From Escherichia phage vB_EcoM-UFV06: a stretch of 64,000 nucleotides of DNA. The DNA is taken from sequence record OP555980.1; one strand, given 5' to 3'. How positions within the stretch are numbered: the stretch's first letter is position 1; each line of letters begins with the position of its first letter. Under the pieces are notes generated by a model that was not told the origin of the DNA, did no database searches, and saw nothing but the letters and a program-made list of their open reading frames with translations. Position numbers and translations under genes: made by a program. Of the stretch, positions 4,055 through 5,069 are shown in pieces.

Positions 4055-4130
4055 TGGTCGAGGCAGTAGGGATCGAACCTACGACCCAGGACTTAGAAGG
4101 TCCTTGCTCTTCCTTCTGAGCTATGCCCCG
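4055..4130 (-). tRNA. tRNA-Arg (anticodon UCU), CCA encoded
   Basis: Hand-folded cloverleaf; anticodon loop CTTCTAA; T-arm GTAGG/TTCGATC/CCTAC; acceptor CGGGGCA/TGCCTCG. Confidence 0.8.
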
Positions 4131-4134
4131 TAAT

Positions 4135-4210
4135 TGGGGTGACCGATGGGAGTCGAACCCATGACTACGAGAATCACAATCTCGAGTTCTACCAACTGAA
4201 CTACGGCCAC
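4135..4210 (-). tRNA. tRNA, anticodon GUG (His by code; tentative, no G-1)
   Basis: Cloverleaf with U8, A14, G18G19, T-loop TTCGACT; anticodon loop TTGTGAT; CCA encoded. Confidence 0.55.
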
Positions 4211-4324
4211 ATTAATACCTACTCCAACAATCATGATGTCTTCACACGAAATTAAGAGAAGAGTGATCAGTTCAACCCCTATAATCGCGTCAAGTAGATA
4301 TTAATGTGACAGTTGTCACAAATT

Positions 4325-4399
4325 TGGCGGACGTGATAGGATTCGAACCTATAACCAATCGCTTAACAGGCGATCGCTCTGCCATTGAGCTACACATCC
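4325..4399 (-). tRNA. tRNA-Asn (GUU)
   Basis: Cloverleaf; anticodon stem ATCGC/GCGAT, loop CTGTTAA; T-loop TTCGAAT; CCA encoded. Confidence 0.8.
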
Positions 4400-4403
4400 A
4401 AAT

Positions 4404-4490
4404 TGGTGGGGAGTGATGGAGTCGAACCACCCGAGTCGCAATGACAATGAATTTACAGTCCACACCGCTACCTCTACGGGATAACTCCCC
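4404..4490 (-). tRNA. tRNA-Tyr (GUA), long variable arm
   Basis: 87 nt, 3-bp D-stem, anticodon loop CTGTAAA, 15-nt variable arm, T-loop TTCGACT; CCA encoded. Confidence 0.7.
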
Positions 4491-4496
4491 TTAATT

Positions 4497-4571
4497 TGGT
4501 GGCCCTGGGTGGAATTGAACCACCATCTGGCGATTATGAGTCGCTTGCTTGAACCTTCCAGCTACAGGGCC
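4497..4571 (-). tRNA. tRNA with anticodon CAU (Met or lysidine-modified Ile, as in T4 tRNA-Ile)
   Basis: Cloverleaf; anticodon loop CTCATAA; T-arm GGTGG/TTCAATT/CCACC; acceptor GGCCCTG/CAGGGCC. Confidence 0.75.
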
Positions 4572-4572
4572 T

Positions 4573-4648
4573 TGGTGCTGATTGACGGAATCGAACCGCC
4601 GACATCCTCATTACAAGTGAGGTGCTCTACCTACTGAGCTAAATCAGC
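4573..4648 (-). tRNA. tRNA-Thr (UGU)
   Basis: Cloverleaf; anticodon stem CCTCA/TGAGG, loop CTTGTAA; T-loop TTCGATT. Confidence 0.8.
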
Positions 4649-4653
4649 AAAGC

Positions 4654-4743
4654 TGGCGGAGGCGATAGGATTTGAACCTATGAATCGCCGGAGCGACTGC
4701 CGGTTTTCAAGACCGGTGCATTAAACCACTCTGCCACGCCTCC
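4654..4743 (-). tRNA. tRNA-Ser (UGA), long variable arm
   Basis: 90 nt; anticodon stem CCGGT/ACCGG, loop CTTGAAA; T-loop TTCAAAT; CCA encoded. Confidence 0.8.
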
Positions 4744-4745
4744 AG

Positions 4746-4819
4746 TCTCCATACAAGGATTTGAACCTTGGACCTCCTGATCCCAAATCAGGCGCTCTAC
4801 CAAACTGAGCTACACGGAG
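4746..4819 (-). tRNA. tRNA-Pro (UGG), CCA not encoded
   Basis: Anticodon stem CCTGA/TCAGG, loop TTTGGGA; T-arm CAAGG/TTCAAAT/CCTTG; only 2 nt from tRNA-Ser 5' end. Confidence 0.8.
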
Positions 4820-4829
4820 TAAATTAAAT

Positions 4830-4903
4830 TGGAGCGGATAATGAGAATCGAACTCACATCATCAGATTGGAAGTCTGAGGTAATACCATTATACGATATC
4901 CGC
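4830..4903 (-). tRNA. tRNA-Gly (UCC)
   Basis: Anticodon stem TCAGA/TCTGA, loop CTTCCAA; acceptor GCGGATA/TATCCGC; CCA encoded. Confidence 0.8.
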
Positions 4904-4908
4904 AAATT

Positions 4909-4995
4909 TGGTGCGAGAAGTGGGACTCGAACCCACAAGGAAATCATTCCGCAGCATTTTAAGTGCTGTGCCTTTACCAATTTGACCATTCTCGC
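4909..4995 (-). tRNA. tRNA-Leu (UAA), long variable arm
   Basis: 87 nt; anticodon stem CAGCA/TGCTG, loop CTTAAAA; T-loop TTCGAGT; CCA encoded. Confidence 0.8.
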
Positions 4996-4996
4996 G

Positions 4997-5069
4997 CTGG
5001 GAATAAAGGATTCGAACCTTTGCATCTAGCAGTCAAAGTGCTATGCCTTACCAACTTGGCTAATTCCCA
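4997..5069 (-). tRNA. tRNA-Gln (UUG), U1:A72, CCA not encoded
   Basis: Anticodon stem TAGCA/TGCTA, loop CTTTGAC; T-loop TTCGAAT; 1 nt from tRNA-Leu 5' end. Confidence 0.8.

Follow-up and report, generated by a model that had tools for sequence, protein, structure and literature searches.

The eleven-gene tRNA cluster of Escherichia phage vB_EcoM-UFV06, its tRNA-His without encoded G-1 and a candidate structured RNA beside it

A preliminary description of a stretch of the Escherichia phage vB_EcoM-UFV06 genome (sequence record OP555980.1; the whole 64,000-nucleotide stretch is referred to here as the window) reported a cluster of 11 tRNA genes at positions 4055-5069 of the minus strand. T4 has eight, given there as Gln, Leu, Gly and Pro, together with Ser, Thr, Ile and Arg, a list that agrees with the T4 annotation. 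The locus raises the question of why the phage carries additional tRNAs with Tyr, Asn and GUG anticodons; codon-usage adaptation or evasion of tRNA-targeting defence had been cautiously proposed, and the identity of the GUG tRNA had been left uncertain.

Gene content and relatives of the operon

Analysis of the whole 64-kb window with ARAGORN found 11 minus-strand tRNA genes at 4055-5069 and none elsewhere. Their order and anticodons (Gln ttg, Leu taa, Gly tcc, Pro tgg, Ser tga, Thr tgt, cat, Tyr gta, Asn gtt, His gtg and Arg tct) are those described before from hand folding, and the additional Tyr, Asn and His genes were all accepted with anticodons unchanged. Ten of the 11 reached the Rfam RF00005 gathering score of 29 bits, with 59-75 bits and E values of 1e-10 to 1e-14. 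The remaining gene, tRNA-Tyr, fell below it, and its best match was the tRNA-Sec model, whose gathering score of 47 bits it missed with 29.9 bits; its D stem has two G-C pairs, one G-U pair and one C.C mismatch, and ARAGORN draws a full cloverleaf. The co-oriented genes are spaced by 0-10 nt, CCA followed by AATT or ATTA being the common pattern at their junctions, with the exception of the 114-nt spacer already noted between Asn and His, located at 4211-4324. The features of the locus are as follows, in order of transcription.

4996..5069, minus strand: tRNA-Gln(UUG); ARAGORN; Rfam 67.3 bits; CCA not encoded; 1 nt before tRNA-Leu; same gene in T4
4909..4995, minus strand: tRNA-Leu(UAA); ARAGORN; Rfam 59.3 bits; long variable arm; CCA encoded
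4830..4903, minus strand: tRNA-Gly(UCC); ARAGORN; Rfam 65.8 bits; CCA encoded
4745..4819, minus strand: tRNA-Pro(UGG); ARAGORN; Rfam 66.8 bits; CCA not encoded; 1 nt before tRNA-Ser
4654..4743, minus strand: tRNA-Ser(UGA); ARAGORN; Rfam 63 bits; long variable arm; CCA encoded (not in T4)
4573..4648, minus strand: tRNA-Thr(UGU); ARAGORN; Rfam 75.4 bits; CCA encoded
4497..4571, minus strand: CAU tRNA, Ile2 type by sequence; ARAGORN; Rfam 59.9 bits
4404..4490, minus strand: tRNA-Tyr(GUA); ARAGORN; Rfam below gathering score; long variable arm, weak D stem
4325..4399, minus strand: tRNA-Asn(GUU); ARAGORN; Rfam 74.1 bits; G73; CCA encoded
4211..4310, minus strand: candidate structured RNA in the spacer; RNAalifold, covariance models and pair counts
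4135..4210, minus strand: tRNA-His(GUG); ARAGORN; Rfam 65.1 bits; T at -1; C73; CCA encoded
4055..4130, minus strand: tRNA-Arg(UCU); ARAGORN; Rfam 63.9 bits; CCA encoded
3686..4036, minus strand: ORF116 (116 aa, PHROG 3355, unknown function), between tRNA-Arg and rnaD
3574..3689, minus strand: homologue of rnaD (species 2 stable RNA); blastn to T4 rnaD, 78.8% over 118 nt, E 4e-18
3429..3567, minus strand: homologue of rnaC (species 1 stable RNA); blastn to T4 rnaC, 98.6% over 145 nt, E 3e-70

The segment at 3429-5069 (minus strand) is very probably the tRNA and stable-RNA operon of the T-even phages (Tequatrovirus), in a configuration that can be described as T2/RB3-type plus a His module. A 1.4-kb query (window 3900-5300) was 100% identical to vB_EcoM-UFV09, UFV05, UFV10 and UFV11, and all 11 tRNAs are annotated in the GenBank record of vB_EcoM-UFV09, a Tequatrovirus. 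At least 80% of this query was covered by 208 records, and the cluster is 95-100% conserved, with intact cloverleaves, in about 190 Tequatrovirus records. The locus is syntenic with those of T4, RB9, RB18 and T6. Two coding-sequence calls overlie rnaC and rnaD, just downstream of the tRNAs, and are probably spurious.

The locus shares with T4 its genomic position, strand, rnaC and rnaD, and the first six tRNAs, which agree in order and almost completely in sequence; the closely spaced pairs Gln-Leu, Pro-Ser and Thr-Ile are common to both. By the annotation of RB18, which has the arrangement of the window, the same ORFs flank the locus (tRNA.2-tRNA.4 upstream, e.8 downstream). It differs from T4 in the absence of segB, in CAU(Ile) and Arg tRNAs that are unrelated in sequence to those of T4 (the CAU tRNA departs from T4 tRNA-Ile beyond the first 12 nt), in the CCA encoded by tRNA-Ser and the CAU tRNA but not by their T4 counterparts, and in the addition of Tyr, Asn, the structured RNA, His and ORF116. 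The T2L/RB1/RB3/RB9-type operon has 10 tRNAs, ending in Thr, Met(CAU), Tyr, Asn and Arg, followed by rnaD and rnaC (PMC2330249). The CAU, Tyr, Asn and Arg genes of RB9 are about 95% identical to those of the window, and the Arg isoacceptor is that of RB9 and the T2 type, whereas the window has in addition ORF116, located between Arg and rnaD, and a module of about 195 nt that comprises the RNA and His and separates Asn from Arg. The arrangement Tyr-Asn-gap-His-Arg is found at 96-100% identity in the type represented by RB18, AR1, wV7 and ACG-C40; RB18, AR1 and others carry a segB-like endonuclease in place of tRNA-Pro, whereas the window keeps Pro and has no endonuclease.

The 11-gene T-even cluster is therefore already known, annotated and common in GenBank. 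A description of its Tyr and Asn genes from T2L, RB1 and RB3 appeared in 2008 (PMC2330249), and the tRNA-Tyr of T6 is a proven counter to Septu. The preliminary description had overlooked both the annotated arrangement and the published Tyr-Asn part. By analogy with T4, the 11 tRNAs would be transcribed as polycistronic precursors and excised by host RNase P and 3'-end enzymes, and a host enzyme would add CCA to tRNA-Gln and tRNA-Pro, which do not encode it.

Codon demand and defence

Relative to approximate reference values for E. coli codon usage, the codons of the T4-shared tRNA set are 1.6-5.4 times as frequent in the phage ORFs: AGA 5.4x, ATA 3.2x, GGA 3.1x, TCA 3.0x, ACA 2.8x, TTA 2.2x, CCA 2.0x and CAA 1.6x. 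Against the same approximate values AAT stands at 2.5x and TAT at 2.1x, and Tyr and Asn as amino acids are each used about 1.5 times as much as in E. coli, a demand that the Tyr and Asn tRNAs would serve. His is the least enriched amino acid of the phage ORFs, at 0.60x the approximate host value. Codon or amino-acid demand fits 10 of the 11 tRNAs, His being the exception.

The CAU tRNA, previously given as Met or Ile, had not been recognised as of the Ile2 type, to which its sequence assigns it and which would carry lysidine and read AUA. Its best E. coli match among 5423 genomes was an annotated tRNA-Ile, with 81.6% identity over the full length in the top matches. The molecule ends GGCCCTG.../...CAGGGCC and carries C4-G69 and C5-G68, pairs that Ikeuchi and co-workers reportedly identified in 2005 as the acceptor determinants of TilS.

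A defence role has precedent for two of the tRNAs. In alignment, tRNA-Tyr differs by 1 nt from that of T6, and 33 nt of it, comprising the variable arm and T arm, are identical to T5 tRNA-Tyr. The T6 molecule is expressed, active and an experimentally shown anti-Septu asset (PMC13096335), and a function of T5 tRNA-Tyr is also on record (PMC11555353). Cells are rescued from PtuAB and from OLD by phage tRNAs for Tyr and Thr(UGU), tRNA-Thr(UGU) suppressing, as a class, the toxicity of P2-OLD (PMC12445682). The tRNA-Tyr of the window would be of the type that in T6 and T5 replaces the host tRNA-Tyr destroyed by Septu or retron-Eco7 (PtuAB). The anticodon loops of the Tyr and His tRNAs are identical to those of the host in alignments, and that of tRNA-Asn matches what we take to be the E. 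coli sequence; no sign of nuclease evasion by anticodon-loop mutation was seen in Tyr or His from the alignments, or in Asn from the presumed host sequence.

The earlier proposal is thus reasonable but uneven: raised demand speaks for Tyr and Asn, and the anti-Septu activity of the T6 homologue for Tyr, but His fits neither part of it. No known defence that targets tRNA-His was found apart from colicin E5, and neither the codon-demand nor the defence reading is directly supported for this tRNA. Selection for each tRNA is conditional, because T4 can do without its tRNA region in the laboratory (PMC2330249) and individual members are missing from close relatives: T4 has no Tyr, Asn or His, T6 no Pro, Ser, Asn or His, and RB18 no Pro.

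The tRNA-His module

The structured RNA and tRNA-His together form one insertion/deletion module of about 195 nt between Asn and Arg, both being absent from RB9 and His alone from LF82-9 and L045. It would appear that tRNA-His(GUG) and the RNA of about 100 nt were acquired together, as a mobile module of their own. A link of ORF116 to this module, for instance as a G-1-adding enzyme, was considered and rejected: the ORF occurs in 425 records, among them T2 and phages that agree in size and organism name with the Mosigvirus matches, and it has no Pfam domain.

Patchy presence among close relatives would also be expected if the three extra tRNAs, the His module above all, were neutral passengers of no benefit to the phage, shuffled by SegB homing and by recombination at the repeated CCA-AWTT junctions. 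The common junction pattern and the under-representation of His codons agree with this, as does the fact that SegB cuts in these tRNA genes and drives replacement of the Met-Tyr-Asn-Arg block in T2L (PMC2330249). The preferred SegB site lies inside the tRNA-Asn gene of T2L, RB1 and RB3 (PMC2330249), the presumed counterpart of that of the window. We regard this explanation as unlikely, since the cloverleaves are intact and conserved throughout the Tequatrovirus records, the His and RNA module persists, with compensatory changes and an identity of 79-89%, in five further genera, and a benefit has been demonstrated for T6 tRNA-Tyr (PMC13096335).

By its GUG anticodon, its encoded CCA and C73, and an anticodon loop identical to that of E. 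coli hisR, which is its best host match (80.3%), the GUG tRNA resembles bacterial tRNA-His. It differs from hisR at position -1, where hisR has G. The absence of an encoded G-1 noted earlier is borne out, the base before G1 being T (...attaat followed by GTGGCCG), so that the eighth acceptor pair G-1:C73 is lacking. T at -1 is found in seven phage lineages (the window and six others), including T5 and a mycobacteriophage. With U in place of G at -1 of the transcript, cleavage by RNase P is expected at +1, which would leave a tRNA-His without the G-1:C73 pair preferred by E. coli HisRS. The 78-nt annotation of T5 tRNA-His, which starts with T, was dropped as proof of a retained U-1; many T5 tRNA features are 77-78 nt long and seem to include flanking bases.

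Charging of tRNA-His without G-1 occurs in the yeast thg1 bypass. Major determinants for HisRS are G-1 and the 5' phosphate that it carries, and organisms or mutants without G-1 can nonetheless charge their tRNA-His, above all if it is plentiful (PMC9976931). Literature searches for work on G-1 in phage tRNA-His gave nothing of direct relevance. The GUG tRNA might instead not work as a histidine tRNA at all, and be charged by another synthetase or serve as a decoy or sink that engages a factor of the host or of a competitor, for example a colicin E5-like anticodon nuclease. Absence of a major HisRS determinant from every phage lineage examined with retention of C73, the low His demand of the phage, and the presence of Tyr, Asn and His among the four colicin E5 targets (PMC1635277) can be read in this way. 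It is nevertheless improbable: the whole body is that of a tRNA-His, with hisR as best match, charging without G-1 is possible, and the T5 relative translates once its anticodon is changed, its CUA derivative being an effective amber suppressor according to the T5 GenBank note. Our best guess, made from the sequence, is that the phage tRNA-His is a usable but sub-optimal histidine acceptor, predicted to provide a spare supply and not codon compensation.

The structured RNA between tRNA-Asn and tRNA-His

The preliminary description had overlooked that its spacer holds a conserved structured RNA. The RNA, of about 100 nt (4211..4310), is closed in the RNAalifold structure by a helix of 14 bp and contains a long hairpin with interruptions and a hairpin of 4 bp whose 7-nt loop is nearly invariant; position -1 of tRNA-His is the last base of the RNA's 3' strand. 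It was found in 358 phage records; 95% of the cells of the alignment are paired, 12 pairs show double compensatory changes, and many conserved G-U pairs are functional only on the transcribed strand. The covariance model gave 76-122 bits in six T-even genera, in Vequintavirinae (one to a few phages) and in metagenomes. No match to Rfam 15 was obtained within 4211-4324 even at E up to 10, and the RNA is annotated in none of the GenBank entries sampled. Chance matches to its pattern made up 28 of 42 in the metagenome scan and two of eight in IMG/VR; a host origin was rejected, as none of 27 pattern matches in 185,579 bacterial genomes was real.

A signal at the level of DNA was also weighed for the spacer, either a promoter within the operon or a recombination motif of the PeSL type, which combines a promoter with a stem-loop. 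It contains TTGACG and a 5' hairpin, TGTGACAACTGTCACA, and in T4 a second tRNA subcluster has its own transcription; PeSL motifs are carried by T4-type genomes (PMC4122927). A scan of 4211-4324 found no sigma-70 promoter on the minus strand, that of the tRNAs, and no -10 hexamer occurs at 16-18 nt from TTGACG, where the sequences are ACTGAT, CTGATC and TGATCA. The doubly compensated pairs, and G-U pairs that work on one strand only, likewise argue against a DNA signal, which was rejected as most improbable. A small ORF at the conserved ATG was rejected too: many relatives have TTG instead of the ATG, the frame that follows lacks conservation, and 1-nt indels together with the covariation pattern exclude it. 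A hammerhead or other known ribozyme was rejected on the lack of an Rfam match and on junction strands of 1, 3 and 1 nt, which leave no room for a CUGANGA core.

The RNA lies inside the tRNA operon, starts 1-14 nt past the upstream CCA and ends directly at His, or within about 4 nt before Asn or Gln. Because its ends coincide with the processing sites of both flanking tRNAs, it may be released as a small stable RNA, like T4 rnaC and rnaD. T4 species 1 and 2 (rnaC, rnaD) and T5 RNA I, III and IV are likewise RNAs of about 100 nt within a tRNA operon, bounded by tRNA processing sites and closed by a long terminal helix; T5 RNA III is the immediate upstream neighbour of T5 tRNA-His, and its fold has a terminal helix of 12 bp. 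The likeness is one of analogy only, and homology to either set was rejected: two covariance models (R1 and R2) had no match in T4, RB9 or T6, and their matches to T5 RNA III and IV, at 7.8-12.7 bits (E 0.2-9), were non-significant (with filters off, RNA IV 12.7 bits, E 0.21; RNA III 7.8 bits, E 4.4).

Complementarity of 4-6 nt between the two hairpin loops, present in six of seven sequence types and weak in each sequence, gives no more than a hint of a loop-loop kissing interaction. Pairing of the conserved hairpin loop with the body of tRNA-His was rejected, the complementary site not being conserved in phage Melville on inspection of the alignment.

On balance we favour an undescribed, phage-only family of structured RNAs of about 100 nt, passengers of tRNA operons, with covariation in a 14-bp terminal helix and two hairpins whose loops are nearly invariant, always placed exactly between two tRNAs and usually beside a G-1-less tRNA-His. 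Such an RNA might define or shield the 5' end of the tRNA that follows it, or work in trans during infection as a regulator or decoy.

The cluster as first reported is nothing new, and the roles of several of its tRNAs are published, namely codon supply and making good the tRNA-Tyr and tRNA-Thr that Septu/PtuAB and OLD cleave. The details added here are the Ile2-type CAU tRNA, the position of His outside codon demand, the tRNA-His without G-1 and the module that it forms with the RNA, the structured RNA itself, and the probably spurious coding sequences over rnaC and rnaD. The parts worth following are the structured RNA and the G-1-less tRNA-His. The latter, occurring across very different phages, offers a natural test of how strict the HisRS identity rule is in vivo, and the former, unannotated in hundreds of genomes of phages that are therapeutic candidates, would be a third stable RNA of unknown function beside rnaC and rnaD.

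The tRNA cluster and its T-even relatives

ARAGORN applied to the whole window predicted 11 tRNA genes, all on the minus strand at 4055-5069, and none elsewhere in the 64 kb. In the direction of transcription these are Gln(UUG), Leu(UAA), Gly(UCC), Pro(UGG), Ser(UGA), Thr(UGU), CAU, Tyr(GUA), Asn(GUU), a gap of 114 nt (4211-4324), His(GUG) and Arg(UCU). The cluster agreed to the base with that folded by hand in the preliminary description, as did the gene order, the anticodons and the 114-nt spacer between Asn and the GUG tRNA. Ten of the 11 scored above the gathering threshold of the Rfam tRNA model (59-75 bits), while tRNA-Tyr fell below it and had its top score, 29.9 bits, with the related tRNA-Sec model; its D stem, as drawn by ARAGORN, has two G-C pairs, one G-U pair and a C.C mismatch. 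CCA is encoded in nine genes and absent from Gln and Pro. Only 0-1 nt separates the two genes in each of the pairs Gln-Leu, Pro-Ser and Thr-CAU, which are the classical dimeric precursors of T4. Junctions between the tRNAs (4055-5069) mostly consist of CCA followed by AATT(T/A) or ATT(T/A), and such short repeats could offer microhomology for the gain and loss of tRNA modules.

A 1.4-kb query (3900-5300) was 100% identical to Escherichia phages vB_EcoM-UFV09, UFV05, UFV10 and UFV11 (Tequatrovirus), whose GenBank records annotate all 11 tRNAs. Coverage of 80% or more was seen in 208 phage records for this region and in 186 for the Tyr-to-Arg part. The cluster type of T2L, RB1 and RB3, published in 2008, has ten tRNAs in the order ...Thr, Met(CAU), Tyr, Asn, Arg, rnaD, rnaC, and the preferred cleavage site of SegB lies inside the tRNA-Asn gene of these phages (PMC2330249). 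RB9 is annotated with the same order. Relative to this type, the window adds a module of ~195 nt, comprising the 'spacer' and tRNA-His, between Asn and Arg, and a 116-aa ORF (ORF116) between Arg and rnaD. RB18 is arranged as the window except that segB replaces tRNA-Pro, and in T6 the genes are Gln, Leu, Gly, Thr, CAU and Tyr, with an endonuclease gene after them. The 11-gene cluster is real, was correctly described and represents an ordinary form of the T-even tRNA operon that had been annotated before. Downstream of ORF116 are homologues of two T4 stable RNAs:

~3574-3689, minus strand: rnaD homologue, 78.8% identity to T4
3429-3567, minus strand: rnaC homologue, 98.6% identity to T4

Two CDS calls in the GenBank record of an identical phage, 3318-3479 and 3485-3613 (PHROGs 28391 and 24262), overlap rnaC/rnaD and are probably spurious.

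The CAU tRNA (4497-4571) and T4 tRNA-Ile are different sequences with only the first 12 nt in common, and the end of identity after nt 12 of the gene looks like a recombination boundary between T4-type and T2-type cassettes. By its sequence the CAU tRNA is of the Ile2 type: it has C4-G69 and C5-G68, and a gene annotated as tRNA-Ile is its closest match in 5423 genomes of E. coli (81.6% over the full length in the top matches). The Arg(UCU) tRNA (4055-4130) shares its anticodon with T4 tRNA-Arg and is unrelated to it in sequence. In tRNA-Ser (4654-4743) CCA is encoded (GCCTCCGCCA), whereas in T4 (3619-3705 of the T4 record, L003) it is not (GCCTCCGTAA); the tRNA-Ser of this phage should therefore have less need of the host CCA-adding enzyme.

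Codon demand, defence and the tRNA-His without G-1

Codon usage was sampled from 19,440 codons in 75 ORFs of the window that do not overlap one another. Every tRNA of the set shared with T4 reads an A-ending codon, and the codons read by this set are enriched in the phage ORFs.

Codon frequency, phage relative to E. coli; all ratios refer to an E. coli K-12 codon table; AAT and TAT lie outside the T4-shared set
AGA: 5.4x
ATA: 3.2x
GGA: 3.1x
TCA: 3.0x
ACA: 2.8x
AAT: 2.5x
TTA: 2.2x
TAT: 2.1x
CCA: 2.0x
CAA: 1.6x

Plus-strand ORFs, taken as mostly late structural genes, and minus-strand ORFs showed the same pattern. Tyr and Asn are used ~1.5 times as often as in E. coli, an over-use second only to that of Lys, and His is the least enriched amino acid (0.60x). 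Adaptation to codon usage, proposed in the preliminary description for the tRNAs additional to those of T4, thus fits Tyr and Asn and does not fit His; codon compensation accounts for ten tRNAs but not for tRNA-His.

The other proposal, evasion of tRNA-targeting defence, has documented precedent for the Tyr and Thr(UGU) classes: T6 tRNA-Tyr, when amplified, overcomes Septu (PMC13096335), T5 tRNA-Tyr overcomes retron-Eco7 (PMC11555353) and phage tRNA-Thr(UGU) suppresses P2-OLD toxicity (PMC12445682). Colicin E5 has four targets, among them Tyr, Asn and His (PMC1635277). In alignments, however, the Tyr and His anticodon loops are identical to the host loops. That of Asn is presumably the E. coli sequence as well. 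Re-supply, and not evasion by mutation, would be the only plausible defence role.

The tRNA-Tyr (4404-4490) differs by 1 nt from that of T6, and a 33-nt block spanning its variable and T arms (TTGTCATTGCGACTCGGGTGGTTCGACTCCATC) is identical in T5 tRNA-Tyr (8341-8428 of the T5 record, L019), the variable loop of which is reported as conferring resistance to retron-Eco7. Many unrelated groups of coliphages carry relatives of the gene, at 82-93% identity.

The absence of an encoded G-1 from the GUG tRNA, noted in the preliminary description, was confirmed: the 5' junction reads ...ATTAAT followed by GTGGCCG, with T at -1, and C73 and CCA are encoded. In E. coli hisR, a G precedes GTGGCTA. T at -1 was also found in the tRNA-His of Jiaodavirus, Gelderlandvirus, Roskildevirus and Karamvirus relatives, of T5 and of a mycobacteriophage. 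G-1 and its 5' phosphate are major determinants for HisRS, and some organisms do without them (PMC9976931). The tRNA may serve as a decoy, or it may be carried neutrally. Nevertheless, because it is His-like as a whole (80% identity to hisR), and because an amber-suppressor derivative of T5 tRNA-His is noted as effective in the T5 GenBank record, we think that it is a putative histidine acceptor, usable but sub-optimal.

A conserved structured RNA in the spacer

About 100 nt of the 'spacer' are conserved, being found in 358 phage records (Tequatrovirus, a Mosigvirus-labelled phage, Karamvirus, Jiaodavirus, Gelderlandvirus, Roskildevirus and four A7_1-like Vequintavirinae) and in 14 metagenome contigs. 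The element was not found in bacterial genomes, where none of 27 pattern matches was real, and it is annotated in none of the GenBank records sampled. It lies between two tRNAs in every case. The downstream tRNA is usually His, which its 3' end abuts directly; it is Asn once and Gln in A7_1, at most ~4 nt away, and Arg in phage LF82-9 and one metagenome contig owing to deletion of His. In LF82-9 (L014:904-1033) and another relative (L045:1895-2019) the element is kept and tRNA-His precisely lost, with only a remnant, GTGAAC...TAATTA, before tRNA-Arg. In A7_1 (L012:624-1450) ARAGORN found four tRNA genes, Tyr, Gly, Gln and Pro, unannotated in GenBank, with a copy of the element between Gly and Gln; this version, present in four records only, was probably transferred from T-even phages.

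In the RNAalifold prediction a helix of 14 bp closes the structure, and there are two hairpins, one long and interrupted, the other of 4 bp with a 7-nt loop that hardly varies. Across 16 distinct element sequences, 95% of cells pair. Changes on both sides occurred in 12 of 29 pairs, against 5.4 ± 1.5 in shuffles (at least 12 in none of 500) and 1-3 pairs in slid controls. Numerous G-U pairs are conserved, which assigns the structure to the transcribed strand. The first hairpin loop exists in two versions, UGAUCA and UCAUGA. In six of seven sequence types, 4-6 nt of the loop at 4250-4262 are complementary to the loop at 4223-4229; the statistics are weak, and the two loops may form a kissing contact.

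No promoter was found in the spacer on the tRNA strand, and coding by the element was ruled out by 1-nt indels. No Rfam family matched it. T5 RNA III, an annotated stable RNA, lies directly upstream of T5 tRNA-His and has a similar terminal-helix architecture; covariance models detected no significant homology of the element to RNA III, rnaC or rnaD. With filters off, the top match in T5 was RNA IV (12.7 bits; L019:3285-3390), followed by RNA III (7.8 bits; 5839-5941), both with near-exact boundaries and neither significant. The element and these T5 RNAs share an architecture. Processing of the flanking tRNAs would excise the element, and it would then accumulate as a putative small stable RNA.

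Of the features in this region, the conserved structured 'spacer' RNA holds the greatest interest; this unannotated RNA and the consistent lack of G-1 in phage tRNA-His provide modest, testable leads.
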